A stretch of DNA of 64,000 nt from an uncultured delta proteobacterium (lineage in GTDB: Bacteria; Myxococcota_A; UBA9160; SMWR01): positions 64,001 to 128,000 of the forward strand of contig CAWHTE010000005.1 in assembly GCA_963832165.1 (NCBI GenBank). Direction: 5' to 3'. Below are positions 6,563 through 47,160 of the stretch, piece by piece; the stretch's first letter is position 1; the number at the start of each line of letters is the position of its first letter. The notes under the pieces were generated by a model. That model was given only the letters and a program-made list of their open reading frames with translations. It was not told the DNA's origin and did not search any database. A program made the translations under genes and the position numbers.

Positions 6563-6685
6563 CGCGCGCCGTCACGCGATGCGGCGCCGCGGCCACAATC
6601 TGCTTGCAAATGCCGTTCTAGAGCGAGTAATAATGCCCCCCAGCGCGCTAAACGCGGTGGATTCCACTCTATTCGGAGGCTCCAA

Positions 6686-7018: not shown

Positions 7019-7056
7019 GCCCGGGCGACTCGCCTAACAGCGAGCGTGTTTGATAG

Positions 7057-7082
7057 CGCGGGAGGGCCTCGGCCCTCCCGCG
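7057..7082. terminator. Hairpin between convergent genes, probable (bidirectional) terminator
   Basis: Perfect 11-bp stem CGCGGGAGGGC / GCCCTCCCGCG with CTCG loop; U-tract is weak. Confidence 0.6.
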
Positions 7083-7089
7083 TTGCATT

Positions 7090-8442: not shown

Positions 8443-8444
8443 AC

Positions 8445-9974
8445 CTAGACCGGCGTGATGTTCCGCCGCTTGGACGGCGCCGGATCGCGCCGGCCCCACG
8501 CGGCGCGCAGCCGCGCCGCGAGCTCGTTGCGCAGCTCGCGGTGCGGCACCACCGCATCGACGGCGAGCTCGCTCGCGAGCCGCTCGATGTCGATGTCCTC
8601 GCGGAACTCGCCGCGCAGCCGCTCCTCCTCGACCGCGCGCTCCGCCTCGGGCAGCGCCTCGAGCTTGTTGAAGTACACCGCGTTCACGGCCGCCTCGGGG
8701 CCCATCACCGCGATCATGGCGCCCGGCAGCGCGAGCGTGGCCTCGGGCTCGAAGCCGGGTCCGCTCATCGCGTAGAGCCCGGCGCCGTAGGCCTTGCGCA
8801 CGATGATCGAGAAGCGCGGCACGGTCGCCGACGACACCGCGGAGATCATCTTCGCGCCCGCGCGGATGATCCCCTGGCGCTCCACCTGCACGCCGACCAT
8901 GAAGCCGGGCACGTCGGCGAGGAACACGATCGGCAGTCCGAACGCGTCGCAGAGCCAGATGAAGCGCGCGGCCTTGTCGGCCGAGTCGACGAACAGCACG
9001 CCGCCCTTCGCCTTGGGCTGGTTCGCGACGATCCCGACCGGGTGGCCGTCGATGCGCGCGAACGCCGTGATCAGCTCCTTCGCGAACAGCCGCTTGATCT
9101 CGAACAGACTGTCCGCGTCGATCAAGCGCTCGATCACGCGCAGCATGTCGAACGTCTTGTTCTCCTGCGCGGGGATCTGCGCCTCGAGATCGTCGCAGCT
9201 CGCGATCGGCGCGACGGCCTCGGTGATCGGCGGCAGGGCGTCGCAGCTCGAGGGCAGATACGAGAGATAGGCGCGCGCGACCGCGATCGCCTCGGGCTCG
9301 GTCGCGACGAGAATGTCGCCGCAGCCCGAGGTGGTGCAGTGCATGCGCGCACCGCCCATCTCCTCGAGCGTGGTGTCCTGCGCGATCACCTTGGCCACCA
9401 TGCGCGGCGAGCCCAGGTACATGCTCGCGTTGCCCTCGACCATCACCACGATGTCACAGAACGCGGGGATGTAGGCGCCACCCGCGGCCGAGGGCCCGAA
9501 CAAGAGACACACCTGCGGCACGCGCCCCGACATCCGCACCTGGTTGTGGAAGATGCGCCCCGCGCCGCGCCGGCCCGGGAACATGTCGATCTGGTCGGTG
9601 ATGCGCGCGCCCGCGGAATCCACGAGGTACACGAGCGGAACACCGGCGCGCTCGGCGCGCTCCTGCACGCGCAGGATCTTCTCGACCGTGCGCTTGCCCC
9701 ACGAGCCCGCCTTCACGGTCGAGTCGTTCGCCATCACGCACACGGGCCGGCCGTCGATCCGGCCCGCCCCCGTCACCACGCCGTCCGCGGGCAGATCCCC
9801 CGCGAGGCTGTTCGCGAACGCGGCGTCCTCGACGAAAGAGTCGGCGTCGAGCAGCAGTGCGAGCCGCTCGCGGCAGAACAGCTTGCCCTCGGCGCGCGCC
9901 TTCTCGTGATACTTCGCGTCGCCGCCCCGGCGGATCTTCTCGAGCCGCTCGACCGCATCCTGCTCGCGCTTCAT
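8445..9974 (-). CDS. Acyl-CoA carboxylase carboxyltransferase (beta) subunit, methylcrotonyl-CoA carboxylase-like
   Basis: ANDSTVKAGSW, DSAGARI, AAGGAYIPA, DVPGFMVG, RKAYGAG; coupled to HMG-CoA lyase. Confidence 0.9.
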   Translation of the reverse strand: MKREQDAVERLEKIRRGGDAKYHEKARAEGKLFCRERLALLLDADSFVEDAAFANSLAGDLPADGVVTGAGRIDGRPVCVMANDSTVKAGSWGKRTVEKILRVQERAERAGVPLVYLVDSAGARITDQIDMFPGRRGAGRIFHNQVRMSGRVPQVCLLFGPSAAGGAYIPAFCDIVVMVEGNASMYLGSPRMVAKVIAQDTTLEEMGGARMHCTTSGCGDILVATEPEAIAVARAYLSYLPSSCDALPPITEAVAPIASCDDLEAQIPAQENKTFDMLRVIERLIDADSLFEIKRLFAKELITAFARIDGHPVGIVANQPKAKGGVLFVDSADKAARFIWLCDAFGLPIVFLADVPGFMVGVQVERQGIIRAGAKMISAVSSATVPRFSIIVRKAYGAGLYAMSGPGFEPEATLALPGAMIAVMGPEAAVNAVYFNKLEALPEAERAVEEERLRGEFREDIDIERLASELAVDAVVPHRELRNELAARLRAAWGRRDPAPSKRRNITPV

Positions 9975-31454: not shown

Positions 31455-32984
31455 ATGAGCTCGCCGCTGCACAACGTCGGTGCGTGGACGCTGCGGAGGG
31501 CGCAGATCGGGCCGGATCACCTCGCGGTGGTCGACGCGGATCGTAGCCTCGATTACCGGGCCCTCCACGAGCGCACGGGCCGCTGCGCGGCGCTGCTCGC
31601 CGCGCGCGGGGTCCGCGCGGGCGACCGCGTGGCGCTCCTGCTCGGCAACCGCAGCGCCTACCTCGAGCTCGTGTTCGCGGCCGCACGGATCGGCGCGATC
31701 GCGGTGCCGATCAACGCGCGGCTCACGGCACCCGAGGTGCGCGGATTGCTCGCGGACTGCACTCCCACGCTGCTCGTGCACGAGCACTCGCTCGACGCGC
31801 TCGCGGCCGACGTCGGCGCGCCGCAGCGCCTCGCCTGCCCCGACGCCTACGAAGCCGAGCTCGCCGCGCACGCTCCGCACGAGGCGATCCTGCCCGTCGC
31901 GCCCGATCACCCGATGATCCTCATGTACACATCGGGCACCACGGGCCAGCCCAAGGGCGCGCTGCTGCCGCACCGCAAGACGCTCTACAACAGCCTCAAC
32001 GCCGAGCTCTTCTTCGGACTGCGCCGCGAAGACCGCGTCCTCGTTGCGCTCCCGCTCTTCCACTCGTTCGGGCTCGCGATCCTCTCGCTGCCCGCGCTCT
32101 ACGCGGGCGCGACGGTCTACCTCGAGCCGCGCTTCGACGCCGCGCGCACGTGGCAGCGCGTGGCGTCCGAGCGGATCACGTTCCTGGGCGCCGTGCCCAC
32201 GCAGCTCGCCGCGTTGCTCGCGGACCTCGAAGCGCGGGGCGACGCGACGCCGCCGCCTTCGCTGCGCTTCCTGTTCGGCGCGGGCGCTGCAGTGCCGGTC
32301 GAACAGATCCGGGGCTTCGAGGCACGCGGGATCGTGCTGAAGCAGGGCTTCGGCCAGACCGAGACCTCGATTCTCTGTTGTCTCGACGCGAGCGATGCGA
32401 TCCGCAAAGCGGGCAGCGTCGGGCGGCCCGTGTTCCACGCCGAGCTGCGCGTGGTGAGTCAGGCCGCGATCGACGGACCCGTCGAGAGCTGGGTCGATTG
32501 CGCCGTGGGCGAGCCCGGCGAGATCGTCGTGCGCGGACCGATCACGATGCTCGGCTACTGGAACCGCCCCGACGAGACCGCCGCGACGCTGCGCGGCGAA
32601 TGGCTGCGCACGGGCGACCTCGCCACACGCGACGACGAGGGCTTCCTCACGCTCGTCGGACGCGCGCGCGACATGTACATCTCGGGCGGCGAGAACGTCT
32701 ACCCCGCGGAGGTCGAGGCCGCCTACGCGCAGCACCCCGCGGTGCGCGATATTGCGATCGTGGGCGTGCCCGACCCGCGCTGGGGCGAGGTCGGCCGCGC
32801 ATTCGTCGTGCCACGCGACGGATGCGCAGTGGACGGCGAGGCGCTGCGCGCCTGGGGCGCCGAGCGCCTCGCCCGTTTCAAGCTGCCGCGCGACTTCGTC
32901 GCGCTCGACACCCTGCCCCGCACCGAGACCGGCAAGGTTCAGAAGCACCGACTCTCGCAGGACGGGTCGGGCCGAAGGCCCTGA
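31455..32984 (+). CDS. Acyl-CoA synthetase (AMP-binding, MenE/FadD-like)
   Basis: YTSGTTGQPKG, GFGQTE, WLRTGDL, ISGGENVYPAEVE, TGKVQK. Confidence 0.92.
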   Translation: MSSPLHNVGAWTLRRAQIGPDHLAVVDADRSLDYRALHERTGRCAALLAARGVRAGDRVALLLGNRSAYLELVFAAARIGAIAVPINARLTAPEVRGLLADCTPTLLVHEHSLDALAADVGAPQRLACPDAYEAELAAHAPHEAILPVAPDHPMILMYTSGTTGQPKGALLPHRKTLYNSLNAELFFGLRREDRVLVALPLFHSFGLAILSLPALYAGATVYLEPRFDAARTWQRVASERITFLGAVPTQLAALLADLEARGDATPPPSLRFLFGAGAAVPVEQIRGFEARGIVLKQGFGQTETSILCCLDASDAIRKAGSVGRPVFHAELRVVSQAAIDGPVESWVDCAVGEPGEIVVRGPITMLGYWNRPDETAATLRGEWLRTGDLATRDDEGFLTLVGRARDMYISGGENVYPAEVEAAYAQHPAVRDIAIVGVPDPRWGEVGRAFVVPRDGCAVDGEALRAWGAERLARFKLPRDFVALDTLPRTETGKVQKHRLSQDGSGRRP

Positions 32985-33825: not shown

Positions 33826-34467
33826 CTACGACTCTGGCGGAGGTATGGCCCCCTGTGCGGCTGTGCTCTCGCCCGGGCCACCCTTGAACACGGCCTTCTC
33901 GAGCGCCTCGAGCCGCCGGATCAGATCGCGGATCACGTCGGGCGACGGTCCTGCACTCGGTGCTGCGGCACTCGCGGGCGCGCCCGGCGGACCCGCACCG
34001 CTTGCGACCTTCGTATAGACGGCGACGCGATCCACGATCTCGTCGAGCTTCGGGATGATGTCGCCCATCGTGCCGCTCTGGATGAAGATGCGCCGTGCGG
34101 CGGCCGCCTCGGCTTCGCTCTTCACATCGAGCGGCAGGCAGTGCACGTCGAGGCTCGCGCCATCGCCGAACTGCGTGAACGCGCCGAAGATCAGATAGTC
34201 GCCGCCGCGCGCCTGGCCCCAGTCGAGCGCCTTCTTGAGCACCGTGGTGGCCGCGCCGGGATCCTCCACGCGTTCCACCTGCACGCGCCCGGTCTGCTCG
34301 AGGCGCGAAGAGATCATGTCGGTGATGCCGCGGCTCACGTAGCCGGGATTCGACGCCGCGGTGTGCACGACGATCGGCAGAATCACGATCCGCGTGCGAT
34401 CGGCCGCCGACGCGCTTCCGCTGAGCAGCAGCGCTCCCATGAGAGCCAGAACCTGCGCGACCCGCAT
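33826..34467 (-). CDS. Exported hypothetical protein (TolB-N/CsgG-like alpha/beta domain)
   Basis: Signal peptide (ASA-A), IVILPI...GITDMISSRL...GGDYLIFGAFTQFGDGASLD pattern. Confidence 0.6.
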   Translation of the reverse strand: MRVAQVLALMGALLLSGSASAADRTRIVILPIVVHTAASNPGYVSRGITDMISSRLEQTGRVQVERVEDPGAATTVLKKALDWGQARGGDYLIFGAFTQFGDGASLDVHCLPLDVKSEAEAAAARRIFIQSGTMGDIIPKLDEIVDRVAVYTKVASGAGPPGAPASAAAPSAGPSPDVIRDLIRRLEALEKAVFKGGPGESTAAQGAIPPPES

Positions 34468-34485: not shown

Positions 34486-36152
34486 TCACTCGGCGTTCGG
34501 CTCGCGGGCGTCGAGCGGCAGACGCACCAGGAACGCCGCCCCGCGCCCCTCGCGGCTCGTCACCTCGATCGTGCCGCGGTGATCGGTCGCGATCCGGTGG
34601 CACACCATCAGGCCGAGGCCCGTGCCGGCGTCGGGGCCCTTCGTGGTGAAGAATGGATCGAAAATCAGCTCGAGGTGCTCGGGCTTGATGCCCGGGCCCC
34701 GTGTCTCGCACCTCGATCTCCACGCCGTTGCCGTCCGGGGCCGGGCCCGTGCGCACGATCACCTCACCCTCGGGCGGCGTGACCGAGAGCGCATTCAGCA
34801 CGAGATTCAGCACCACCTGGTGGATCTGATCGCGCGCTGCGACGATCTTGGGCGTCGCGGACTCCGCGCGCAGGATCAGGCCCACGCGGCCGAGTTCCGC
34901 CTCGCGGTGCAGCAGCGTCACGACTTCGCGCGCCACTTCGTCGGGCCCGAACGTCTCGTACGAGATCCCTCCAGCGCCGGCCTGCCCGAGCCGGCGCATC
35001 GTGCGCAGCAGCTCGCGGATGCGATCCACTTCCTTCACCGTCAGCGCGTGATACTCGCCCCAGAATTCGAGGTCGGCCTCGGCGCGCTTCGCGGGCGCCA
35101 TCGCGAGGAACGTGTTGATCGCCACGAGCGGATTGTTGATCTCGTGCGCGAGACCCGCGGCGAGCATGCCGAGCGATCCGAGCCGGTCGGCCCGCCGGAT
35201 CTGTTCGCGCGAGCGGCGCAGGTCTTCGACGAGGCGCGCGTTCTCCACCGCGATCGACGCCTGATTCGAGAGCCCCTCGATCAGCGTGATGTCGTCGGCA
35301 GTGAAGCGCCGGCCACCGCGGCGGTTGTCGACCGTGATCGCGCCCATCAGGCCGTCCTTGCCGAACAGCGGCGAGACGAGGATCTCGTCGGCCGCGACCT
35401 CCGATAGCCACTGCCGCACCACGTTCGAGTACTCGAGCAGGTGCTCGCCGCGCAGCGTGAGCGACATGCCGTCCTCGAGCCGCGAGACGAAGTCGTGCGC
35501 GTTCTCCACCGTGAACTTGAAGCGCTGCAGGCGCGAGGTCGATCTCGTCGGGCACCGAGGGAAGAACCCACTCGAGGGAGCGGTTCTTCGGGTTGCGCAG
35601 CAGGAGATTCGCGCCGTCGTAGCCGAGATCCCTGCGCATCGTGGCGAGGATCAACGCGAGCAGCCGATCGAGCTCGAGCTCGCGGTTGAGCATTCCCGAC
35701 ACGCGGTTCAGCACCGTGAGCTCGTTCAAGAGCTGCGAGCGCTCGCGATCGAGCGCGTAGGCCTCGATGCCGCGCAGCAGCGTGGCGCGCACGTCCTCGG
35801 GGTTCCACGGCTTCGGGATGAAGCGGTAGATCGACCCGTTGTTGATCGCGTCCTGGAGCGTTGCTGCATCGCCGTAGGCCGTGACCATGATCCGGATCGT
35901 CTTCGGATCGATCTGGGCCGCGCGCGCGAGGAACTCGGTGCCGGTCATGCCGGGCATCCGGTGGTCCGAGATCACCACCGCCACGGGCTGGGTGTTGATG
36001 ATCTCGAGGCCCGCTTCGCCGCTCGTGGCGGTGACGATGGAGAACTCGCGCCGGAACGTGAGCTCGAAGATGCGCAGGTTCTCGGGCTCGTCGTCGACAT
36101 AAAGGATCGGATACTCGCGCGGCTCGCGGAGCATCTCGGGGTTAGGCCGCAT
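34486..36152 (-). CDS. Hybrid REC-GAF-histidine kinase, two frameshifts (near 35530 and 34695)
   Basis: ILYVDDE...ISDHRMPG...FIPKPW receiver; GAF-like middle; GLAHEINNPL, NLVLNA; DTGPG then IFDPFFTTK..GTGLGL in a third frame ending at TGA 34486. Confidence 0.85.
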
Positions 36153-39021
36153 CACGCCCCTCGCCGTTCGAGCCGGGGTGATCCGGCAGCGGGAAGCGCA
36201 TCACCACGCGGGCGCCTTCGCCGTGGACCGAGCCGATATCGAGCGATCCGCCGTGCTCTTCCATGATCCGCCGGCTGATCGAGAGCCCGAGCCCTGAGCC
36301 CCGGCCGACCTTCGTGGTGACGAACGGCTCGAACAGCCGGTCGCGCACCTCGGGTGCCACGCCCGGACCGTCGTCCCGGATCTCCACGAGCACGGCGCCC
36401 TCCTCGGTGCGGGCCGTCACCCAGACGGATCCGGCCCCGCGCTCGGATTGTTCGAATGACTCGACCGCATTCTTGAGCAAGTTCAGGAAAACCTGGTTCA
36501 GGGCGCGCACATCGCCGCGGATCTGCGGGAGCCCCTCGGGGATATCCGCATGGATCTGGACCCCAGCCGACGTCAGCGTGTGACCCATCAGGCGCAGCGT
36601 CGTGCGCAGTCCGCGCGCCAGGTCGACCGGCCCCCGGTCGCGGGACCCCGGTGCAGCGAAGTCGCGCAGGTCGCCCACGAGCGCCGCCGTGCGGTCGAGC
36701 CCCTCGGTGACGATGTCGGTGAGCTCGGTGAGCGTGGCCGCGCTCTCGTCGAAGCCGAGCTTCGTGCGCAGCGCCTCGAGTGCATCGATCTGGCGGCGCA
36801 TCGCATCGGTGTCGCCCGGGTCGATCGCAGCCACCTGCTCGGCCACCTTGCGCACGTCAGCGACCACCGCGCGCAGCGTGCGGGCCGCGTTCATCGCGAA
36901 GTTCACGGGGTTGTTGATCTCGTGGGCGACGCCGGCCGCGAGTTCACCCACGGCCGCGAGCCGTTCTGCGTGGACGAGCTGAGCGCCGGCCTGCTTGAGC
37001 TCCTCCATCGTGGCCATGAGCTCTTCGTTCGTGGTCTCGAGCAGCGAGTTGCGCACCGCGAGCTCCTGCTGCGCGTGGCGCAGCCGGACGAGGGATCGCA
37101 CGCGTGCGAGCAGCTCGCGCGGATGGAACGGCTTGGTGACGTAGTCGTCCGCGCCGTGCTCGAGCCCCTGGATCTTCATCTCGCGCTCGGCCTTCGAGGT
37201 GACGAGCACCACGGGCACGCTCGCGAGCGCCGGGTCGCGCTTGATCTCCGCGCAAAGCTCGATACCCGTCATCTCGGGCATCATTACGTCGGTGAGCACG
37301 AGGTCGGGCGCATGCGCGCGCGCGGCCTCGAGGCCCTCGCGTCCGTTGCGCGCCACGCGCACGCGGAACTCCTGTCCCACCAGGTGGTGGAGCAGGCGCC
37401 GCATGTCGACGTTGTCCTCCACCAGCAGCACCTCGGGCGTACCGGGCGGATGGTCGGGATAGTTCGGCCGCGTCTTGCGCTTCCACTGCCCTTCCGCGCG
37501 CTCGACGTTCCGCTCGAGCTCCACGTACTTCATCTGTTCCCGCAGATGGCCATCATCGCTGGCATCGCTGTCGGTGCCTTCGCTCGCCTCGCCGTCGGGC
37601 TCGTCCTGGCGGAGCTCCGCTTCCATTCCCGCAATCGCGCTGCGCAGTGCCGGTGAGAGCTCTGCCGCATCGATCGCCTCGGACACCGCGTCTTCTGCCG
37701 CGTCGCTCTCGCCTGCGGGCAGCACCACGTGGATCTGCGCGCCATGTCCGAGCCCGTGGCTCTCCGCCCAGACGCGCCCACCGTGCAGCTCCACGAGCTC
37801 CTTCACGAGCGCGAGCCCGATCCCCGTGCCTTCGTATCGGCGCGTGTTCGAGCCATCGACCTGCGCAAAGCGGTCGAAGATGCGCTCGAGCTGGTTCGGC
37901 GGGATCCCCGCGCCGGTGTCCGCCACGACGATGTGTACACCGCCTTTCCCTTCGTGCACACCGTGCACCCGGATCGCGCCGCCACCGTCGGTGAACTTCA
38001 GCGCGTTGCCGAGCAGATTGACGAGGATCTTCTCGAACGCCTCGGGATCGGCGTGGATCTCGGGCAGCTCCTCGAGCCCCTCCACTTCGAGCCGCACGCC
38101 TTTTCGTTCCGCGAGCGGACGCGCGCCCGAGATGATCCCCTCGCACACCTCCGCGAGCCGCACGGGCCGCCGCCGCACCTGGAGCTGTTGGCTCTCGATC
38201 TTCGCGAGGTCGAGCAGGTTGTTGATCAGCTTGAGCAGCCGAAGCCCGTTGCTCTGCACGGTTTCCAGATAGCTTTGCTGCATCGGGTTGAGCTCGCCGA
38301 ACTCTCCACCCAGCATCGCCTCTACCGGTGCCAGCGTGAGCGTGAGCGGAGTGCGCAGCTCGTGGTGGATGTTCGCCGTGAAGCGCGACTTCGCGGCGTC
38401 GAGCTCTTTCAGCTCGTCGCGCGCGCGCTCGATCTCGCGGCGCTGCAGGAAGTCGGAGAAGCGCATGCGATCCAAAAGAGCGCAGGCGACAACACTCTCT
38501 GCACCCGCCGCAAGTGGAAACGCCAAAGCGAGCAAATAGGCGTGCCAGCTTAGAGCAGCAGACTCAGTAATCGGAAGTGCACCTAACCCCACAACAAGTA
38601 CAGCAACGATTCCGGCCGCTTGCATTGCTGTAAGCGGAAGCAATACGGGCATTCCCAGGAACAGCAGCATCAGGCCCGGCGTGTATTGCCCACCGGCCCC
38701 TCCCACAACCCCAATTACTTCCAGCAGCATCCATCCCGCGCAGAGCACGCCAACGATGCAAGACGCCTTGGGGTATCGGCTTGCTGTAAATGTGGCGATC
38801 GCAATCATTACAAGATCGCAGGCGACTCGTACCCAAAGCATGCGCAGGAACAGTTCTCGAAAGACGAACCAATCCAATGCCATGAACGCCGTGGTAAATG
38901 CGGCGACGATAAGCGCACCGTTCCGCGTCGCTCGCGGCAGTTCCGCTAGCTCAACGTGCGCGCGATATTCGGCGTAGGCGGATCTGGCCTGGCGGTCGAT
39001 GATACCCATCGCCTCCGCCAA
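36142..39021 (-). CDS. Membrane hybrid sensor kinase TM-HisKA-HATPase-REC-HisKA-HATPase
   Basis: About 5 TMs, NIHHELRTPL, NLLGNALKF, GTGIGL, LLVEDN...LTDVMMP, GVAHEINNP, NLLKNA, GSGLGL; alternative ATG start at 39009. Confidence 0.92.
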   Translation of the reverse strand: MAEAMGIIDRQARSAYAEYRAHVELAELPRATRNGALIVAAFTTAFMALDWFVFRELFLRMLWVRVACDLVMIAIATFTASRYPKASCIVGVLCAGWMLLEVIGVVGGAGGQYTPGLMLLFLGMPVLLPLTAMQAAGIVAVLVVGLGALPITESAALSWHAYLLALAFPLAAGAESVVACALLDRMRFSDFLQRREIERARDELKELDAAKSRFTANIHHELRTPLTLTLAPVEAMLGGEFGELNPMQQSYLETVQSNGLRLLKLINNLLDLAKIESQQLQVRRRPVRLAEVCEGIISGARPLAERKGVRLEVEGLEELPEIHADPEAFEKILVNLLGNALKFTDGGGAIRVHGVHEGKGGVHIVVADTGAGIPPNQLERIFDRFAQVDGSNTRRYEGTGIGLALVKELVELHGGRVWAESHGLGHGAQIHVVLPAGESDAAEDAVSEAIDAAELSPALRSAIAGMEAELRQDEPDGEASEGTDSDASDDGHLREQMKYVELERNVERAEGQWKRKTRPNYPDHPPGTPEVLLVEDNVDMRRLLHHLVGQEFRVRVARNGREGLEAARAHAPDLVLTDVMMPEMTGIELCAEIKRDPALASVPVVLVTSKAEREMKIQGLEHGADDYVTKPFHPRELLARVRSLVRLRHAQQELAVRNSLLETTNEELMATMEELKQAGAQLVHAERLAAVGELAAGVAHEINNPVNFAMNAARTLRAVVADVRKVAEQVAAIDPGDTDAMRRQIDALEALRTKLGFDESAATLTELTDIVTEGLDRTAALVGDLRDFAAPGSRDRGPVDLARGLRTTLRLMGHTLTSAGVQIHADIPEGLPQIRGDVRALNQVFLNLLKNAVESFEQSERGAGSVWVTARTEEGAVLVEIRDDGPGVAPEVRDRLFEPFVTTKVGRGSGLGLSISRRIMEEHGGSLDIGSVHGEGARVVMRFPLPDHPGSNGEGRDAA

Positions 39022-39087
39022 TCGACCAATCGCGACTAATACTTAAGCCACGCTTCTGCGCGTGGCTCGCACGCGCACGGAGCCAGT

Positions 39088-41556
39088 CTACGGCCGGCGT
39101 GCGCTTACGATCACTGCTTGAGGGGGGTCGCCAAACCCTTGCCCCGCCTGGACTTCTACGAATCCCGCGTTCGCGACAGCAAAGCGAAGCTCCGATTCCT
39201 CCCAAAACCGGAAGCGCCCACTCTCCTCAAGATCAAGTAGCCGCGAACCATCGTTCAGAAAGTCACGCACAAGAGAATCAAAGGAGCTATCAACCGCCCT
39301 GCCGAGCAAAGTTCGGGCCTCAGGAGTCGCGTACTCGAGAAGGCCATCGTGGAAAAGCATCGTCGCGTCCGCATCCTGCACCATTGACGATAGAACTACG
39401 CGCCCACCAGGCATGAGAACTCGGTAGATCTCGCGAAGCAGCCGCTCAGGGCTCTCTACGTAGCTGATCAGCAGAGATGCGATTACTGCGTTGATTGACC
39501 CACTGGCGAGCGGAATCGCCATTCCTCTTCGGAGATCTAGGTTGCCAACACATTGCGTCGTCAAAACTTCACATTGCTCTTGTGTTGGATCCCTCCGCGA
39601 CCTAGCGCGAATCAGTGCATCCCGAACGAAATCGACCTCGATCACCTTGGCTCGTTTAGGCCCGAGGCCTCCGCGTAGACCTACGGAGAACTCGCCCGTC
39701 CCGGCTCCGAGATCCGCAACCCGCTGACCTTCTGCAAGCTGAAGCATCCGGACCTGCGCTTCCATGAAGTTTCGATAGGCGGCTGTTGCCGTAAGCAACT
39801 CCATACCTACGATACGACTTCGACCCAGCAGGTAATCCGCCCAGAACGCTCTCACATCAGGCTGCGCCAACGGGATTCTCGCCAGCTCCGCAGCGCGGGC
39901 GGCGGCAACGCGGGTGACTCGAGGCAGAACGCCGCTCTTCCGCTCGCCCAACGCCATCTCGCTGACCTCTTCCGCGATCAACTGAAATGTCGCAAGAGCC
40001 TTGTGCCCACTCCGCAGCTGGTGGCCAGTCGGAACTTCGATAATCCGCCTAGTCTCCGTGGGCCCGCACGACATGATCTCAATCACGCGGTTGAGATCCA
40101 TCCAGGCATCGTGTCGCCCGTGGATCCACGTGATCGGAATCTCGATGTGCGCCATTTCTCTCCGGGCGTCTTCCAGGAAGCCAATTCCGTTCTCTATCGC
40201 GTCCAAGCCCGTGTAGTCCATGTCAGCGACGACACCGGCTAGTTCGTGTCGACCAAATTTCATTCCTTGAAGCAGGCCACTTCCGAAGTCAATCCCACCG
40301 GAAATTGTCCTGAGCGCGGAATGCAAGTCAGCCATTCCGACGATTGAAACCCATCCGGAGACCCTATGATCGCGGGCGAGAGCATGCCTTGCTTCGACCG
40401 CGGCAAGGCTGAAAGTGACAAGGATGATCTTCCTTGGGGCCCGCGCTTGGTCGCTCAACAAGTAATCGACGGTTGCTGAGATATCCCGAGCCGCCTGCGA
40501 GAAGGTAAAGCGGAGATATTCGTCACCGGGCTGACGACAGTCTTGGTCAATGTGGGACTCTCCGCGCCGGTTAGTCCCGTCGAATCGAATTACCCGAATC
40601 GGCTCCCCGAGTCTTCGGAACGACTCCACGAGCGTCATCGCTAAAGGAAGCATCGTTTCCTTGGTGCGCCCCCACGCGGGTGGAATTATCACGCCAACAC
40701 CGTTCGAGTGCGCCCCCCATCTGTTCTCAATCGCACGAATTGACTCGCCTCGCTCGTTCTCGTACTCGACGACGTGCACCCGGTGCCGTCGCCTGTTAAT
40801 CGCGAAGCCCGCTTTCAGAGCAAGTGCGCTAACGCCCGCACGCGCAAGCTGCATCGTTTCGCGAACTGTCGGGCCACGACCGAGAATCTGATCTCGGCGG
40901 TCAACGTTGAGTAGCTCGCTCGTTGGGACGCTGCTTACTGACAGACCAACCTTCAACCATCCGGGCCGAGTGCTATCGGCGGTCCGATGACGGACGCGTC
41001 CAAATGCCGGCTCTCCCTCGTGACCAACTCGGAGCTCGATTTCGAGAGGAAGGCTCTCCGCCAAAGCCTGAGGCATCCGAATCCCAATGCCATGACGTGT
41101 CCGGTCCATCACCTCGACTTCGGACCATCTGCTTGGGGTTCCGCTCTGAATCATTACCCGGCGCGGATCCGCGTGACTCCGTCCGAGATCACGCCGCTCG
41201 GCGCGATAGACGGACCGGGGAATCGTTGCTCGCAGCGTTCGCGCTCCCACTGCGGAGACGGCTGAACATGCGAAGAAATACTGGGTACCGGCAAGCTCGA
41301 GGCTAAAGAAGAGCTGGGAGTTGGCATGTAGGCTGATGTTCGTCACGGCGAGCAACAGCGCGTTCAAATCGACGTGGAGAATCCTCGCTGTTCGGTCAAT
41401 CCCTGCGTTCAGCACACTTCCTTCTTGCGCTGCACGTTCCAGGATCGCCCGCACTTCGGTGGGATTCGAAATAGAATCCCGGTGGAGCGCTCCAAAGGTC
41501 TCGCTCGCAATGCGATCGAGTCTCTTCGTCGTCTCACCGCCTCTATGCGGCGACAT
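39088..41556 (-). CDS. YcgR-N/PilZ + LuxD-like alpha/beta hydrolase + class I SAM methyltransferase fusion
   Basis: ERRDLGR (RxxxR) and DRTRHG; IRFDGTNRRGES, TFSLAA, HGRHDAW, TGHQL; VADLGAGTG, EIYRVLMPGG. Confidence 0.75.
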   Translation of the reverse strand: MSPHRGGETTKRLDRIASETFGALHRDSISNPTEVRAILERAAQEGSVLNAGIDRTARILHVDLNALLLAVTNISLHANSQLFFSLELAGTQYFFACSAVSAVGARTLRATIPRSVYRAERRDLGRSHADPRRVMIQSGTPSRWSEVEVMDRTRHGIGIRMPQALAESLPLEIELRVGHEGEPAFGRVRHRTADSTRPGWLKVGLSVSSVPTSELLNVDRRDQILGRGPTVRETMQLARAGVSALALKAGFAINRRRHRVHVVEYENERGESIRAIENRWGAHSNGVGVIIPPAWGRTKETMLPLAMTLVESFRRLGEPIRVIRFDGTNRRGESHIDQDCRQPGDEYLRFTFSQAARDISATVDYLLSDQARAPRKIILVTFSLAAVEARHALARDHRVSGWVSIVGMADLHSALRTISGGIDFGSGLLQGMKFGRHELAGVVADMDYTGLDAIENGIGFLEDARREMAHIEIPITWIHGRHDAWMDLNRVIEIMSCGPTETRRIIEVPTGHQLRSGHKALATFQLIAEEVSEMALGERKSGVLPRVTRVAAARAAELARIPLAQPDVRAFWADYLLGRSRIVGMELLTATAAYRNFMEAQVRMLQLAEGQRVADLGAGTGEFSVGLRGGLGPKRAKVIEVDFVRDALIRARSRRDPTQEQCEVLTTQCVGNLDLRRGMAIPLASGSINAVIASLLISYVESPERLLREIYRVLMPGGRVVLSSMVQDADATMLFHDGLLEYATPEARTLLGRAVDSSFDSLVRDFLNDGSRLLDLEESGRFRFWEESELRFAVANAGFVEVQAGQGFGDPPQAVIVSARRP

Positions 41557-41650
41557 TCGTTCCTACCGCATCGTCTTGGCGAGAGACTGTCCGGGATCCC
41601 CGTACATGGCGGCCCATATATTCTCACGGCGGGGGGCCGGAAACGGTCTC

Positions 41651-41679
41651 TTTATACTACGCCCGTCTGAGCTTTCCAA
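41651..41679 (-). promoter_or_regulatory. Putative sigma70 promoter for the fusion gene
   Basis: TTGGAA-N17-TATAAA on minus strand about 95 nt upstream of ATG 41556. Confidence 0.5.
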
Positions 41680-41699
41680 GGCATCGGCGTCGGATCCCG

Positions 41700-44600
41700 C
41701 TAGGGAGCCTCGCGCAGTATCCGCTGCTCGAGGTTCCCCATACCGAGCGCCCTAGCTTGCTGCAGTGCCAGGCTCCAGTACTTCCGCCCGCTGCCCACAC
41801 GGTTCTGATCCAGCATCGAAGCGTTGTCAGCATACGTGTGCGCCAAGGCCGGGCCTGCTCCTGCCGCTCGATTCGCGACGATTGCCCTACGAAAGTGAGC
41901 CTGAGCGGTATTCCATTGACACATCAGGCCGGCTAGTACACCAAGGAATCGGTCGGTTGATCCCCAGCAGAAGCTGCTAAATCCCACGACCGCCATTTGT
42001 CCCGCAAAGCGCTCCCACAGGGAATACAGCTCGCGGACAAGCGCAGGAGACTCGAGCACTCGGCACGCTAGCGTCAGAGATCCTAGCGTCCCGAACCACG
42101 CGTTTCGTGGAAAGCTGCTCAGTGCACCTCTGGCAATAGCCGCCTCCATAACATCGCGTGCTTCATCAAGCTTTCCGAGTTCGCAATAGAGATAACAAAC
42201 ACCAGCCTGCCAGCCCTCTACTCTCGGAAAATCCGATGCGATTGCGACTACTGCGGGTTCAATCTCCTCCAAACCTCCCACATCAATCGCGGCCATAGCA
42301 CGCTGCAAAGCAAAACTGTGAAGCGCGTTCCGATCGTCAACCGCTAATCCCTGCCGTAGGAACTCCTCGCCATGCTCACGTGCCGCTGCATAATTCCCTC
42401 TCATTAGCGCGATAGTTGCCTGTAGCATCCCGACATACCAAGCGGCGCTCGGCCTGCGAGTTCGCTGAATCAAAGCTCCGAATCCACCAATCTCAATATC
42501 AACCTCACGCATCTCGCCAACCTGCCAAAGCGCAGTAATCCGGAGAATCGTCCGGAGGAGCGCCGTAGATCCATCCTCTGTATTAGCCGATGTGGATCGA
42601 CGAATGTGCTCATGCGGTGTTTCAACAGAATACAAGGCCAGGCTGCCTGCAGTCCTTGCGAACGAAACCATCTGCAAGTCTTCTCGCGCCTCAGCTGCGA
42701 CAATCGCTTCTTTTACAAGAGCCTTGAGTCGCTCCCGAGGCTCGTCGGACCAGTGAAGCGCCACAGCAAGTCTCGCAAGTATTCGCGGTCGCTCCCGCGC
42801 GTCGGCTGGAAGCTTTCCGAGCGCACCCTCAAGTAGCCCAACCAAGTCGCGGTCGTAGACCCCCGTCTCAATTGCCAATAGGTCCGGAGCAAACGACAGT
42901 GCAGCTCTAGCGCCGAGGTCAGGTCGCTTGCAGTGCTCCGCCAACCGAGCAGCTTCGATTAACGCGTTGCGTGAACTCTCGCGATTCCCAGCGAACCCGT
43001 ACGCCAAGCCCCGCTCCAAGCACAATTCACAGCGCAGCTCGCTGTCCTCTGGACACAGACGTTCCAAGAGGACGACCGCACGCTCGAGATGAGCCGCAGC
43101 TGAGTCGAATGCCGCCCGCTCAATGTCCCACCGAGCGGCACGTATTAAGTAGCTAATCGCCTTAGCGGCAATCGGAGTCGGATACGCGGCTGCGAAATGG
43201 CGCGCAATCTCAGCACTTAGGGGACCAAGCTCTACTCCAGCCATTTCCTCCATAGCGAGAGCGATGCGCCCGTTGTTCTCAGCGCGCTCCGCCGCCGTGA
43301 GCGACGCGCAGACAGCCTCTCTAACCAAGGCATGCGCGAATCGATAGTGACCGACTTCGTCGTCGTTTACACAAATGCCATGGTCTATTGCGACTTCGAG
43401 ACCGGCAAGAACTCGCGATGCATCCATCGCCAACGCATGCTCCAAGAGACCAGCAGAGAACTCTTTTTCAATCACGGCAGCCATTGCCAACAGACCCTTG
43501 ACGCTGGCGGGCAGCAACTCCGTCTGCCTCATTATTGAATCTCGAACTCCGCGCGGAATTGAGTACTCAAGAGGCTGCGCTGTCGTTAGAGATTCAAGGC
43601 GACCCGCATTCTCAAGTACATTCAGTACTTGCAAGACGAAGAATGGGTTTCCATTAGTCTTCGCGAGAAGGTCTCTCACCGCCTCAGCGCTCGGTTGAGT
43701 CCCCACGCGACGCTCGGTGATGATCGCCACATCGTTCGCACATAGACCCCCGAGCGTGATCAGTTCCGCACCTCGCGACCGGAGAACTGACGACACCATC
43801 CCGACACACTTTTGATAGCTACTTCCATGCGTCCTAAAAGTCCCAAACAGAAGCACGTGAGATCCATTCAACTCTGCTGCGAGATGCTGAAATAACAGCC
43901 TGGAAGCCTGGTCCGCCTCATGCAGATCATCGAGGAAGATCGCGATGGGCCCCAGCGATGAGAGCTTCCTAACGAGGGTCAGAATGCTCTCGAAGAGCCT
44001 ATGACGGGATGCTCGCGCGTCGTCCGTCGGACTACTTGCGGAGGGTGAGACTACTTCTTGCAGTTCGGGAAGAACCCAGGCGACCTCCTCAGCTCCATTG
44101 CTCATCGTGTGCACGATCCATTCTCGAGACTCACCTTCTACGAGCTGACGAAGTACCTGAGTCCACGGCCAAAGAGCCGGCGCTTCATCAGTGCCTACGC
44201 ATCTGGCGGATCCCACGCGGAAACCGCGATCGCTCGCGTGAGTTGCTGCCTGCAATAGGGCGGTCGTCTTTCCAATGCCGGCTTCACCAGTTGCAAGGAT
44301 CGTGCGATAGCCACCCGAAGCAGCATTGCTAAGCGAACGCTCCACAGATTCTAGAAATGACTCGCGTCCGAGGAACGAATGATCATCCTGAGTTCGCGAG
44401 CTTCTCTCTGCACGATCGAGCCGAACCAAAGCCGGTTCGACTTGCGCCACAAACTGCAGGCCATTCCCCCGAACTGTCCGAATGATTTGCTGAGCGTGTC
44501 CGGTGTCTCCAATGGCCCGTCTGACGGCGTGCACTGCAAAGCGAAGCGCCTGCTCGTTTACACGCACCCCCTTCCACACGGTGCGGTGAAGTTCCTCGCG

Positions 44601-44759
44601 CGAGACAACTCGGTTTCTGTTGTCGATCAGGTAGAACAGCAGGTCGAGTGGCCTTGCCTGAAGCTGTACTACACGTCCTCGCCGCAATAACAATCGTTCT
44701 GATCTGGAAAGTTCGTACTCGCCGAATCGAACGACAGCGACGTCCTCAAACGCGTTCAT
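41700..44759 (-). CDS. OmpR-type winged-helix + AAA ATPase + TPR-like transcriptional regulator
   Basis: RFGEYEL...VVSREEL...VRRAIGD...IRTVRGNG wHTH; GEAGIGKT Walker A; FLDDLHEAD Walker B; TNGNPFF; YRFAHALVRE; helical C-terminus. Confidence 0.85.
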   Translation of the reverse strand: MNAFEDVAVVRFGEYELSRSERLLLRRGRVVQLQARPLDLLFYLIDNRNRVVSREELHRTVWKGVRVNEQALRFAVHAVRRAIGDTGHAQQIIRTVRGNGLQFVAQVEPALVRLDRAERSSRTQDDHSFLGRESFLESVERSLSNAASGGYRTILATGEAGIGKTTALLQAATHASDRGFRVGSARCVGTDEAPALWPWTQVLRQLVEGESREWIVHTMSNGAEEVAWVLPELQEVVSPSASSPTDDARASRHRLFESILTLVRKLSSLGPIAIFLDDLHEADQASRLLFQHLAAELNGSHVLLFGTFRTHGSSYQKCVGMVSSVLRSRGAELITLGGLCANDVAIITERRVGTQPSAEAVRDLLAKTNGNPFFVLQVLNVLENAGRLESLTTAQPLEYSIPRGVRDSIMRQTELLPASVKGLLAMAAVIEKEFSAGLLEHALAMDASRVLAGLEVAIDHGICVNDDEVGHYRFAHALVREAVCASLTAAERAENNGRIALAMEEMAGVELGPLSAEIARHFAAAYPTPIAAKAISYLIRAARWDIERAAFDSAAAHLERAVVLLERLCPEDSELRCELCLERGLAYGFAGNRESSRNALIEAARLAEHCKRPDLGARAALSFAPDLLAIETGVYDRDLVGLLEGALGKLPADARERPRILARLAVALHWSDEPRERLKALVKEAIVAAEAREDLQMVSFARTAGSLALYSVETPHEHIRRSTSANTEDGSTALLRTILRITALWQVGEMREVDIEIGGFGALIQRTRRPSAAWYVGMLQATIALMRGNYAAAREHGEEFLRQGLAVDDRNALHSFALQRAMAAIDVGGLEEIEPAVVAIASDFPRVEGWQAGVCYLYCELGKLDEARDVMEAAIARGALSSFPRNAWFGTLGSLTLACRVLESPALVRELYSLWERFAGQMAVVGFSSFCWGSTDRFLGVLAGLMCQWNTAQAHFRRAIVANRAAGAGPALAHTYADNASMLDQNRVGSGRKYWSLALQQARALGMGNLEQRILREAP

Positions 44760-44897
44760 GAATTCATTATCCCATGCGAGCCGTTCTTCTAGTTGCCCCG
44801 AGGGGCACGGGGACTTCCGAAACAACAAACTGCTAACGAATCGCCGGAGGCGCCAAGTCTATGCTCCTCGTCACCCCAGAACGCCGAGGACGGCCTA

Positions 44898-46151
44898 ATG
44901 CAGCTCACTGAACGCAGCCGGGTCCTAGTCGCTGACCCCATCAGAGAGAACCGTGGAATGCTCGTCGAGACCCTCTCCTCGTGCGGAATGTCATGCATTG
45001 AAGCTGTGGACGGAGTATCTGCTTGGCGGTGCTTTACGGCAGATAGACCAGACCTCGTCTTGGCAGCCTTGCAGCTTCCTGGTCTAACTGCCCTTGACCT
45101 ACTCGCTCGCATTCGCGACGTCTCGACCACCCCATTCGTCGTTCACGCTCCCGCCGGCGAAATTCCCGCCGCCATCACTGCAATCCGCCGTGGTGCCGCC
45201 GATGTCATTCCCTTCCCTTGTCACGCGGACGAGCTATCCACCCGAATTAAGGCCGCGCTTGCGACTAACCCCGAACGCCGTCGCCGGACAGAAGCACCCG
45301 AATCGTTTGCAGGGCGAAGCCAAGCAACCTCGCGGATCCGAGAGCAAATCAGAGCGCTCGCTGGCTTGCGAATTCCAGTTCTGTTCTGTGGCGAAAAGGG
45401 TACCGGTCGCGACCACGCAGTTCGCTGCCTCGCACAATTGGACGGCGTGGGTGCGAATGATCTATTCAAAGTGTCGCCTGTTACCGGACGCCCCCTAACT
45501 CGCCATGAGGCATCAAAAGCAATCTACATCGATGAGATAGAGCGGCATTCTCGAGTAGACCAAGCCTACTGGTGCGAACGAATCAGCGACTCCGAAAGGG
45601 CCGCACAGGATGCTCCTCGGAGAGTCATCGTTTCAACGAATTCTGATCTAGACAGACTCTCGAGGCGAGACGAGTTCGATCCCAAGCTCGCCGGGATCCT
45701 CCTCCGCTTCGTGGTCAACATTCCGCCGCTTCGCGCTCGCCGTGAGGACCTAATTCCCCTTGTAGAGAGTCTCGGACTTCACGCCTCGCGCCGAATAGGG
45801 CGACCGAATACCAGATTCACTACACCTGCGCTGAAGCTATTGCAGCAACAAACATGGCCGGGGAACGTGTCTCAGCTCGCAGCGCTCATTGAGAAGCTTG
45901 TTGCATTTTCTCCCGACGGCTTGATCACTAGACGCCTCGTCTCGGCCCTGATCGAGGAAGCGCCAACGGGTGTCCCTTCGCTCCGCCGGAATGCGCTACG
46001 CCTTCAGCGCGACGAACTCCTCGCAATCCTCGACCAGACCGGCGGGAACCTCGCAGAGGCGGCTCGACGCATGAATATGAGCCGCGGCGCGGTGATCTAT
46101 CGCGCGCAGAAGTTTGGCCTGCTGGCGAAACGCGTGCGCGCGAACCCCTGA
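44898..46151 (+). CDS. Degenerate NtrC-like REC-AAA-Fis HTH regulator
   Basis: REC-like N-terminus, GEKGTG, IPPLRARREDL, WPGNV, GGNLAEAARRMNMSRGAV; phospho-Asp and GAFTGA absent. Confidence 0.8.
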   Translation: MQLTERSRVLVADPIRENRGMLVETLSSCGMSCIEAVDGVSAWRCFTADRPDLVLAALQLPGLTALDLLARIRDVSTTPFVVHAPAGEIPAAITAIRRGAADVIPFPCHADELSTRIKAALATNPERRRRTEAPESFAGRSQATSRIREQIRALAGLRIPVLFCGEKGTGRDHAVRCLAQLDGVGANDLFKVSPVTGRPLTRHEASKAIYIDEIERHSRVDQAYWCERISDSERAAQDAPRRVIVSTNSDLDRLSRRDEFDPKLAGILLRFVVNIPPLRARREDLIPLVESLGLHASRRIGRPNTRFTTPALKLLQQQTWPGNVSQLAALIEKLVAFSPDGLITRRLVSALIEEAPTGVPSLRRNALRLQRDELLAILDQTGGNLAEAARRMNMSRGAVIYRAQKFGLLAKRVRANP

Positions 46152-46152
46152 A

Positions 46153-47160
46153 TCAAGCCCCTGCGAGAGGGACCTTTCGCACCTTCACACCCGCCTCTCG
46201 CAGTAGATCGAGTGACGTCTGACCTAGCGGGTAGTCGGCGTTGTACACAACTTCGGTGAGGCCGGAATTGATGATCATCTTGGTGCAGATCAGGCAGGGG
46301 CTGAAGGTGGTGTAGAGGGTCCCGCCCTTCACCAGGACCCCGTGATAGGCGGCCTGGGTGATGGCGTTCTCCTCGCCGTGCGAGCACAAGCACTCATCGA
46401 GGCGGGTTCCGCCTTCCGCGAAGCTATTGCAGCGCGGACAGCCGCCCTCGTTGCAGTTGAGCGTGCCGCGCGGGGTTCCGTTGTAGCCCGTGGAGATGAT
46501 GCGGCGGTCGCGCGTGATCACGGCGGCCACCTTGCGCTTCACGCAGTTGCTGCGCGACGCCACCACGCGCGCAATGGCCATGAAGTATTCGTCCCAGCTA
46601 GGTCGTTCAAAAAAAAAGGAGCGCTCCAGCTGCGCCTGCACCTGGGCGTGTAGCTCAGCGAGCGTGCCGTCGTTACTCAGCGTGGTGTCGGCGAGCGCAT
46701 GCACGGCGAGGAGCTGTTGCGCGGCGGGGTCGGCGCCGCCGAGCTCGCGGCCCTCGAGCTCGCGCAGCTGTTCGAGCGTCTGCGGATCGCCGCCGCGCCC
46801 GCGCGCGCGCATGCGTGCTAGGCGAACGTTTTCGTCGGCGTCCACCCACCAGAGCTGGAAGCGACTCGTGCGCGCGCGCAGCACCTCCACCTCGGCAGGG
46901 TGGCGCACGGAATCGATCACGTAGTTGCGGTCGGGCAGCAGCTGTTCGGCGAGCAGCGTTGCCAGGCCACCGGGCCCGCGCGCCTGCCGGATCGCATTAC
47001 CGGCATCGATCATGCGCTCGCGCGTCTCTTCCTGGCCTTGGCGCCGCAGCTCGTCACGGATCACATCGGACAGCGACAGCGCGTAGAAGCTGCGCGACTG
47101 AAGGAAGGCGAGCACCTCACCCTTGCCGGCGCCGTTGCGGCCCGAGAGCCCGATGATCAT
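46153..47160 (-). CDS. P-loop nucleotide kinase-like domain fused to dCMP deaminase
   Basis: IIGLSGRNGAGKG, VIDSVRHPAEV; RPSWDEYFM, TGYNGTP, HGEENAI, PCLIC. Confidence 0.88.
   Translation of the reverse strand: MIIGLSGRNGAGKGEVLAFLQSRSFYALSLSDVIRDELRRQGQEETRERMIDAGNAIRQARGPGGLATLLAEQLLPDRNYVIDSVRHPAEVEVLRARTSRFQLWWVDADENVRLARMRARGRGGDPQTLEQLRELEGRELGGADPAAQQLLAVHALADTTLSNDGTLAELHAQVQAQLERSFFFERPSWDEYFMAIARVVASRSNCVKRKVAAVITRDRRIISTGYNGTPRGTLNCNEGGCPRCNSFAEGGTRLDECLCSHGEENAITQAAYHGVLVKGGTLYTTFSPCLICTKMIINSGLTEVVYNADYPLGQTSLDLLREAGVKVRKVPLAGA

Follow-up and report, generated by a model that had tools for sequence, protein, structure and literature searches.

Why should an enzyme that joins a PilZ domain, a thioesterase-like hydrolase and a methyltransferase in one polypeptide be encoded directly in front of a membrane-bound double histidine kinase? 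The question is raised by three genes at positions 34486-41556 of the window, by which is meant the whole 64,000-nucleotide (nt) stretch of an uncultured delta proteobacterium analysed here (GCA_963832165.1, contig CAWHTE010000005.1, positions 64,001 to 128,000). The source genome (G000, with the window on contig C5; other genomes and loci carry G and L numbers) has about 70% G+C, and public records label its relatives as metagenome-assembled genomes of Myxococcota or 'Deltaproteobacteria'. A first-pass annotation, made from the letters alone, had read the locus as a candidate fatty-acid-ester signalling system. In the answer developed here the genes form a synthase-sensor module, in which the fusion makes a predicted methylated fatty-acyl product that would be read by the adjacent six-transmembrane (6TM) hybrid kinase and relayed via a kinase with receiver (REC) and GAF domains; this is held as a serious possibility, somewhat short of probable. 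It draws on domain make-up, intact motifs, adjacency, behaviour as a unit, lipid-related companions and co-divergence, all of which are observed. The genes and the parts of their products (amino acids, aa) are:

39088..41556, minus strand: fusion enzyme gene, 822 aa, PilZ / LuxD-like hydrolase / class I S-adenosylmethionine (SAM) methyltransferase
fusion aa ~25-215: N-terminal beta domain and PilZ barrel, with RRDLGR at 121-126 and DRTRHG at 151-156
fusion aa ~257-563: LuxD-like alpha/beta hydrolase, with Ser383, Asp483 and His512
fusion aa ~582-822: class I SAM methyltransferase domain, with DLGAGTG at 615-621
36142..39021, minus strand: hybrid kinase gene, 959 aa, 6TM-HisKA-HATPase-REC-HisKA-HATPase
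38422..39021, minus strand: membrane sensor domain (kinase aa 1-200), six predicted helices, no periplasmic domain
36142..38421, minus strand: cytoplasmic part of the hybrid kinase, HisKA-HATPase ~205-440, REC 531-642, HisKA-HATPase ~650-945
34486..36155, minus strand: third gene, REC-GAF-HisKA-HATPase kinase (Pfam), PhcR-like in architecture

The layout had been described correctly: all three genes are on the minus strand, and coordinates and Pfam agree on a 66-nt gap (39022-39087) followed by the membrane double kinase, which is overlapped over 14 nt by the third gene (start at 36155). The claimed PilZ/hydrolase/methyltransferase fusion is likewise borne out. PilZ domains are defined by the motifs RxxxR and (D/N)xSxxG, and PilZ (PF07238) matches 17 of 40 aligned fusion homologues at E 0.01 or better and all five distant homologues above the Pfam cut-off. 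In the window's own fusion protein, the only above-cut-off Pfam match is to methyltransferases, at aa ~600-800 (Methyltransf_11, E 1.9e-12, and five related families). The families matched are of small-molecule type (Methyltransf_11/25, UbiE), and no CheR or CheB family is among the Pfam matches of the fusion. LuxD (PF02273) is a sub-threshold match (E 0.0034, 17.1 bits vs a cut-off of 20.3), as is Hydrolase_4 on the middle part, and a distant fusion homologue in L056 exceeds the LuxD cut-off with 23.6 bits. Public annotations of fusion homologues read 'class I SAM-dependent methyltransferase' or carry UbiE/BioH-type labels.

Conservation and structure prediction agree with this division. Across an alignment (A1) of 40 fusion homologues with 42-73% identity to the window's protein, the invariant residues include Arg121, Arg122, Arg126 and Gly156 in the PilZ region, Ser383, Asp483 and His512 in the hydrolase, and D615, G617, G619 and G621 of the SAM motif (DxGxGxG, 615-621). 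Ser383, Asp483 and His512 are predicted, by their positions in the fold, to form a catalytic triad. In the AlphaFold2 model built on A1 (predicted local distance difference test, pLDDT, 82.3; predicted template modelling score, pTM, 0.81), two N-terminal domains rich in beta structure are followed by an alpha/beta hydrolase and then by a methyltransferase of Rossmann fold. When aa 257-563 of the model were compared with LuxD (1tht) by VIA-align, 275 of 294 residues were aligned with Z 29.0 and a root-mean-square deviation (rmsd) of 2.6 A; the next-best hydrolase reached Z 24.0, 5 Z units below LuxD. The top Foldseek match of the domain is also LuxD, the Vibrio harveyi myristoyl-acyl carrier protein (ACP) thioesterase (E 1.1e-12, template modelling score by target, TMt, 0.79), and in structure comparison the domain is closer to this acyl-ACP thioesterase than to lipases or phospholipid-modifying enzymes. 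The thioesterase proposed by the first-pass annotation thus finds a specifically LuxD-like counterpart at the level of the modelled fold, and both the PilZ and the LuxD-like assignments, made from profiles and model, hold at family level.

The adjacency of enzyme and kinase was followed in three sets, namely 26 public species-genome loci, the closest 41 genomes and an even 401-genome sample of the phylum; relatives are non-independent samples, which weighs on all of the synteny counts. A kinase with the sensor domain follows the fusion on the same strand in 18 of the 26 public loci. Six of the remaining eight end 2.4 kb or less past the fusion, L017 has the kinase 6.7 kb upstream, and the distant L036 has a kinase in which the membrane-domain match is undetectable. 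The REC-GAF kinase follows in nine of the 14 loci of sufficient reach and is inverted in a tenth (L036). Among the closest 41 genomes, 14 have a full-length fusion and all 14 have the membrane domain; enzyme and kinase are adjacent on one contig in 11 of them and lie on separate contigs of fragmented assemblies in G017 and G037. In the phylum sample, the fusion (threshold E 1e-60 or better) was found in 50 of 401 genomes, and in 39 of these the membrane domain is encoded on the same strand, no more than 3.5 kb downstream. Direct hmmsearch adds G375, G309, G368, G138, G243 and G094, which brings the genomes with a downstream sensor kinase to 45 of 50; synteny of fusion homologues with these kinases was the test set beforehand for the original proposal, which thereby passes it. 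In G227 a kinase-receiver gene without a detectable domain match lies downstream, and in G101 the kinase is on another contig than the fusion.

In distant syntenic cases the enzymes are only about 28-37% identical and the surrounding genes are different. The adjacency therefore exceeds inherited gene order, since enzymes about 30% identical keep it amid differing neighbours. The genes of the module run in one direction and are closely packed, with little space between them or with short overlaps, and in distant loci the start and stop codons of enzyme and kinase are close or overlapping. In one distant clade (L076, L078 and L057, from G309, G138 and G329), a receiver protein like the third-gene REC is found not downstream of the kinase but immediately before the fusion.

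Comparison of the chromosomal surroundings in relatives shows where the module begins and ends. The genes around it in the window are:

46153..47160, minus strand: left backbone flank, kinase-like P-loop and dCMP-deaminase-like (Pfam), outside the module, marking the insertion site
44793..46151, plus strand: NtrC-like response regulator with REC, partial sigma-54 AAA+ and HTH_8 (Pfam), divergent from the STAND gene
41700..44828, minus strand: 1042-aa regulator, OmpR-type winged helix and AAA_16/STAND NTPase (Pfam Trans_reg_C, AAA_16)
33826..34467, minus strand: right backbone flank, 213-aa protein (p213) with a hydrophobic N-terminus, outside the module

In six of six examined genomes without fusion and kinase (G019, G024, G035, G028, G033 and G038), the two flank genes adjoin each other, and the module is therefore gained or lost as one unit. 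p213, weakly TolB_N-like (Pfam E 0.028, below the cut-off), was considered as a module member and rejected; it is assigned to the backbone because 38 of 41 relatives have it, at a constant position in the chromosome and with the module present or not. Some apparent absences stem from contig breaks: the contig of G005 starts inside the kinase, that of G003 630 nt before it and that of G010 about 1.5 kb before it. Upstream of the G016 kinase, a stretch of about 6.5 kb gave no fusion match.

The 959-aa kinase has, by Pfam, two HisKA, two HATPase_c and one REC domain. Its histidine boxes, as read from the translations, are HHELRTP in the first kinase and AHEINNP in both later kinases of the module, and the receiver aspartates are present. 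About six hydrophobic helices occupy aa 35-184, with almost no loops between them. This sensor domain belongs to no family in Pfam or NCBIfam. Asp50 and Arg65 are among its invariant residues, and it has a conserved stretch, GG..Y.PGL.LLF.G.PVL.P. The AlphaFold2 model made from its profile (A2) is a helical bundle (pLDDT 90.7), for which Foldseek returned no match at E 0.001 or better. Look-alikes in the ESM Atlas fall into clusters partly labelled MASE2/6/7/8/11 or 6TM_PilS (0.93-0.95), which serve as leads only. It is the gene neighbours of this new sensor family that suggest lipid ligands.

The REC-GAF kinase put in third place by the first-pass annotation has the expected REC, GAF, HisKA and HATPase_c domains; as assembled, the gene is split over three frames (36155-~35574, 35491-34691 and 34698-34516). 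Public short-read contigs (from small-share DNA runs) were consulted solely for the two frameshift sites; no RNA run was listed for this gene. The base at 35535 is absent from one 151-nt X1 contig that is identical elsewhere, and the base at 34691 is absent from one contig each in X2 and X3. As these contigs do not have the extra bases, the two 1-base insertions are probably assembly errors. Without them, a single frame runs to the TGA at 34486-34488, where the annotated span begins. Alternatively, the third gene may be a recent pseudogene in this organism. The assembly (11 contigs, 89% complete) may hold further indel errors of this kind. For the third-gene receiver (window 34764-36155, first 161 aa), the best match is to the receiver of c-di-GMP (cyclic dimeric guanosine monophosphate) phosphodiesterase regulators of the NosR family (NF053512, E 5e-43, far below the cut-off of that model).

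Base composition and sequence divergence both set the enzyme and the membrane part of the kinase apart from the kinase core. In a 400-nt profile, a low-G+C block covers ~38200-46300 of the window. G+C at third codon positions (GC3) is 0.45-0.75 across the fusion, the STAND gene and the NtrC-like gene (0.52-0.75 on its own). For kinase aa 1-180 it is 0.47-0.72, and from aa 181 it steps up to 0.82-0.95, the range given for the cytoplasmic part being 0.77-0.95. The enzyme, the STAND gene and the first ~180 kinase codons are 0.15-0.35 below the kinase core, with the step at the membrane/cytoplasm junction. A similar contrast is seen in G001, G003, L033 and L023, is weak in L022 and is absent in L050. 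A one-off import from a low-G+C donor was rejected on this ground, the low enzyme and sensor GC3 being found again in the first four; low GC3 is a recurrent property and not a single recent import, because the contrast recurs in several genomes. The recurring pattern suggests repeated exchange or suppressed recombination of the block.

Compared with G001, of the same genus, identity is 58-78% for the third gene and the kinase core, vs 31% for the STAND protein, 39% for the enzyme and 55% for the sensor domain. Compared with the metagenome contig L049 (which spans module genes only, so that its 57% G+C is uninformative on its genome), the STAND protein is 70%, the enzyme 68% and the first 89 sensor residues 65% identical. 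In partial Mantel tests on 18 same-order loci, which are liberal for related sequences such as these non-independent relatives, enzyme and sensor distances correlate at 0.54 given the kinase core (p 0.0004, 5000 permutations), and enzyme and core at 0.03 given the sensor (p 0.40); when three distant loci were included, the two correlations became 0.58 and 0.27. The divergence of the enzyme tracks the sensor domain and not the kinase core.

Companion genes were identified by clustering the neighbours in the 26 loci and running Pfam on representatives. An MMPL-family transporter of ~750 aa occurs in 10 of the 26, and in seven of these its gene separates those of enzyme and kinase. Three loci have a LolA-like gene immediately before the fusion, and three have a cytochrome P450 gene divergent from the fusion. 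The PDB matches of the P450 (Streptomyces P450, BM3-type and CYP3A4-type) do not fix its substrate. At 8272-11968 of L075 (G000:C7:334000-353000), the MMPL orthologue of G000 (49% identical) adjoins a paralogue of the AMP-binding ligase encoded at window 31455-32984.

Where the fusion is missing, other enzymes can stand before the sensor kinase. Inspection covered 14 loci that contain the sensor domain (profile A2) and no fusion, and five of the 14 were counted as having enzymes, named or partly named, ahead of the kinase. In L063 (G160:C5:317000-328000, 2931-9659), a 2242-aa type I polyketide synthase (PKS; ketosynthase-acyltransferase-ACP-ketoreductase-dehydratase) overlaps the kinase start. 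A MerR/B12-binding (CarH-like) regulator is encoded just upstream of this PKS. L069 (G296:C98:31000-42500, 312-9420) encodes a luciferase-like monooxygenase, a PilZ-methyltransferase (512 aa), a methyltransferase of the cyclopropane-synthase-type CMAS family, MMPL and the sensor kinase, and is a variant module without the LuxD-like domain. A methyltransferase and MMPL precede the kinase in L068, and a 655-aa PilZ-like methyltransferase does so in L064. In L061 and L062 the genes before the kinase code for a REC-HATPase protein and for an unnamed protein of 532-553 aa. For two of the upstream proteins, the unnamed one of 532 aa and that of 655 aa, profile comparison gave weak matches only (probabilities 0.7 and 17). 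The gene upstream of the kinase is divergent in L065, L066, L071 and L074 and unrelated in L067, L072 and L073 (MopE-repeat protein, M50B-like peptidase and NIF3-family protein), and L070 ends at the kinase. The identities of these companions (MMPL, LolA-like, P450 and PKS), as assigned from sequence, suggest lipid chemistry.

A mechanism can be drawn from these elements, each chemical and signalling step of which we infer from sequences and models. Binding of c-di-GMP to the PilZ domain would gate the enzyme. The LuxD-like domain would move an acyl chain from acyl-ACP or acyl-coenzyme A (acyl-CoA) onto Ser383, and the methyltransferase domain would methylate the freed acid with SAM, a fatty acid methyl ester being the simplest guess for the product. 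This hydrophobic product could leave the cell, aided by the MMPL, LolA-like and P450 proteins where these are present, and would be bound within the membrane by the 6TM domain. Kinase 1 of the hybrid protein might then phosphorylate its own receiver, which would control kinase 2, and kinase 2 in turn would phosphorylate the REC of the REC-GAF kinase; three kinases in series would hand the signal to some downstream regulator.

Several points weigh against a synthase-sensor module of this kind, in which the product, the c-di-GMP control and the sensing of a ligand are themselves predicted. Pfam finds no PilZ domain in the window's own fusion protein, and its second PilZ motif (DRTRHG) has Thr at the family-consensus Ser position. 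Many unrelated small-molecule methyltransferases match the methyltransferase domain equally well, at Z 20-21.5, so that the methyl acceptor is not readable from similarity, and by sequence the top PDB match of this domain is a phosphoethanolamine N-methyltransferase from a plant; matches of the fusion profile also include phosphatidylethanolamine N-methyltransferases. The only fold match of the 6TM domain is the membrane domain of ImcA, a Pseudomonas diguanylate cyclase (template modelling score by query, TMq, 0.73; E 0.012), and the accessible portion of the source ties that six-helix domain to contact with the membrane region of a partner, not to a lipid ligand (PMC10904736). None of the fold or Atlas matches names a ligand for the 6TM domain. 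Of 401 genomes, 102 have the sensor domain, and in 60 of these the fusion is missing. Gene order also varies: a fusion piece is 1.46 Mb away from the kinase in G025 (68% complete), in G374 and G402 the kinase precedes the fusion at a distance of 7-9 kb, and no kinase lies within 8.7 kb of the fusion in G095. The window locus is without an exporter, the MMPL orthologue of G000 being on contig C7. Finally, enzyme and sensor are physical neighbours, and linkage alone can raise a partial Mantel value such as the 0.54 given above.

Four other explanations were weighed. In a DesK-like membrane-lipid homeostasis loop, the 6TM domain would sense the state of the membrane and the enzymes would remodel its lipids, with no diffusible signal. 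A sensor wholly within the membrane and without a periplasmic domain would suit such a loop, as would partners elsewhere that include a CMAS-type methyltransferase and MMPL lipid transporters, and the phosphoethanolamine and phosphatidylethanolamine N-methyltransferases among the PDB matches. It is nevertheless considered unlikely: the hydrolase is nearest to an acyl-ACP thioesterase, which frees acyl chains, and less near to lipases and phospholipid-modifying enzymes; co-divergence of enzyme and sensor without the kinase core fits specific recognition better than a bulk property; and the kinases, unlike DesK/DesR, are encoded without a DNA-binding response regulator. That same co-divergence, and the presence of different lipid enzymes at one spot before the sensor family, would be left unexplained if enzyme and kinase were only co-regulated in one c-di-GMP-linked pathway, the kinase not sensing the product and perhaps controlling the enzyme in response to another cue. 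We take this to be quite unlikely, although the tight co-directional packing with short gaps or overlaps, the PilZ domain on the enzyme, the NosR-family match of the third-gene REC (E 5e-43) and the STAND and NtrC-like regulators nearby are all in keeping with it.

The enzyme might also modify protein, the methyltransferase marking the kinase or a partner and the hydrolase removing the mark under c-di-GMP control. There are precedents, at least in the accessible portions of two reports: a neighbouring methyltransferase methylates the hybrid kinase in RsbM/RsbK (PMC4574943), and a PilZ protein, MapZ, controls CheR1 (PMC12564702). PilZ-methyltransferases without the hydrolase also precede the kinase family (L069 and L064), and in distant loci the enzyme and kinase codons are close or overlapping. 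A distinctly improbable assignment results all the same, because the methyltransferase matches small-molecule families with no CheR among the Pfam matches, the hydrolase is LuxD-like and not CheB-like, and the MMPL, LolA-like, P450 and PKS companions indicate lipid chemistry. That the genes are merely inherited neighbours, or part of an anti-phage defence island without enzyme-kinase coupling, is barely credible. Backbone genes around the module are syntenic in relatives too, and a low-G+C block with a STAND NTPase might be expected of such an island; set against this are adjacency across orders at about 30% enzyme identity in differing surroundings and the presence or absence of the module as a unit. 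PADLOC, run on the island proteins and an MMPL, gave generic, domain-level matches only, and the defence reading was dropped.

The synthase-sensor reading places the module beside several known systems, among them the Phc quorum sensing of Ralstonia, which has a similar gene logic. According to the accessible text of one report, the Phc operon encodes a SAM-dependent methyltransferase, a sensor histidine kinase and a soluble receiver and kinase protein without a DNA-binding domain, and strains fall into signal types that differ in their synthase and sensor sequences (PMC8578825). The Phc signal, which activates the sensor, is a methyl ester of a 3-hydroxy fatty acid. The module shares the operon order of methyltransferase, membrane kinase and receiver-kinase, so that the architectural parallel to phcBSRQ drawn by the first-pass annotation is sustained; the likeness is one of order and architecture. 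The co-divergence of enzyme and sensor parallels the split of Phc strains, and a phospho-histidine at about aa 220 in the module kinase compares with H230 of PhcS, as given in the part of the source available (PMC11960443). The module differs from Phc in a synthase enlarged by PilZ and LuxD-like hydrolase domains, in a sensor that has two kinase units and a receiver of its own between them, in the GAF domain of its relay protein and in phylum. Between the third gene and the gene at 33826-34467 there is no open reading frame for a PhcQ-like single receiver. No Phc-named NCBIfam model is among the best 25 of 165 kinase families, and none was found for the sensor part, which is no test of homology to PhcB or PhcS. 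The overall interpretation first proposed is supported in part: the domains, the thioesterase at fold level, the Phc-like architecture and the synteny have stood, and the methyl-ester chemistry is still a prediction. By analogy, the module is Phc-like in logic; membership in Phc is unproven.

In the Rpf/DSF (diffusible signal factor) system of Xanthomonas, the signal is sensed by a multi-helix membrane hybrid kinase and is linked to c-di-GMP. The module resembles this system (RpfF, RpfC and RpfG) in its thioesterase-type enzyme, in its predicted link to c-di-GMP and in the third-gene receiver, which best matches receivers of c-di-GMP phosphodiesterase regulators. The enzyme that makes the fatty-acid-derived DSF signal has acyl-ACP thioesterase activity, according to the accessible part of the source (PMC13660987). 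RpfF, however, has a crotonase fold, unlike the alpha/beta hydrolase and methyltransferase of the module; the output of Rpf/DSF is c-di-GMP, which the module would instead receive as input via PilZ; and no HD-GYP protein is encoded at the module locus. LuxD itself (1tht, PF02273) is the best structural match of the hydrolase, with a conserved Ser/Asp/His set, but the two are 16% identical, the window protein is below the Pfam cut-off, the module hydrolase is fused between PilZ and methyltransferase, and no lux genes are nearby. In the specificity cassettes of the peptide quorum-sensing systems agr and comQXP, the variable block consists of the signal-making gene and the membrane sensor part, the kinase core is conserved and the signal is a peptide. 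The module recalls this arrangement in its uneven identity with G001 and in a GC3 step around aa 180. DesK is a membrane-only sensor encoded next to a lipid-modifying enzyme; the module sensor is likewise membrane-only and beside a predicted lipid enzyme, and the module operon differs from DesK/DesR in having no DNA-binding regulator. In RsbK/RsbM a methyltransferase adjoins a hybrid kinase, as stated in the accessible part of the source (PMC4574943); that of the module is not CheR-like.

Candidate control elements and regulators are found in and beside the module. The promoter-like and spacer elements read from the sequence are:

41651..41679, minus strand: promoter-like TTGGAA (41679-41674), 17-nt spacer, TATAAA (41656-41651)
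39022..39087, minus strand: G+C-rich spacer with the inverted repeat GCGCGTG-cgagc-CACGCGC and no T run

The promoter-like element lies within the 143-nt gap upstream of the fusion gene. The sigma70 promoter called plausible earlier has this TTGGAA-17-TATAAA sequence; it fails the criteria of a consensus promoter scan, which reported no minus-strand site upstream of the fusion. A terminator scan found none between the genes of the module. The inverted repeat in the spacer could tune the relative expression of enzyme and kinase. The 1042-aa STAND protein is likely a cluster-situated transcription regulator; homologues are encoded near the fusion in 8 of 26 loci (L019, L020, L021, L023, L027, L029, L030 and L034) and further in L042, L049, L060 and L068. 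The NtrC-like regulator of the window is an accessory part, with a homologue beside the STAND gene in the same-genus locus L042/G001. Its match to the main sigma-54 interaction profile covers no more than positions 2-45 of 168, and its ATPase core may be degenerate.

A full-text literature search found no paper on the fusion or the module, which is real, conserved and apparently undescribed. The module is common (50 of 401 sampled phylum genomes) and cleanly delimited, and it would join three themes that are usually separate, namely c-di-GMP input, lipid chemistry and a multi-kinase relay. The work also defines a new membrane sensor domain family, present in 102 of 401 genomes. Myxococcota is a model phylum for social behaviour for which, to our knowledge, a small-molecule system with a dedicated synthase and receptor, of the type of Phc, DSF or N-acyl-homoserine lactone (AHL) signalling, has not been described. 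A further-reaching and rather doubtful idea is that the module is a c-di-GMP-gated lipid autoinducer system native to Myxococcota, in which enzyme and sensor would be swapped jointly as specificity cassettes and thereby give rise to strain 'dialects', and that the sensor family, wired elsewhere to PKS and CMAS-type methyltransferases, would amount to a general class of receptors for lipids that the cell itself makes. Should signal specificity underlie the co-divergence of enzyme and sensor, the module would be a non-peptide case of pherotype-like diversification.

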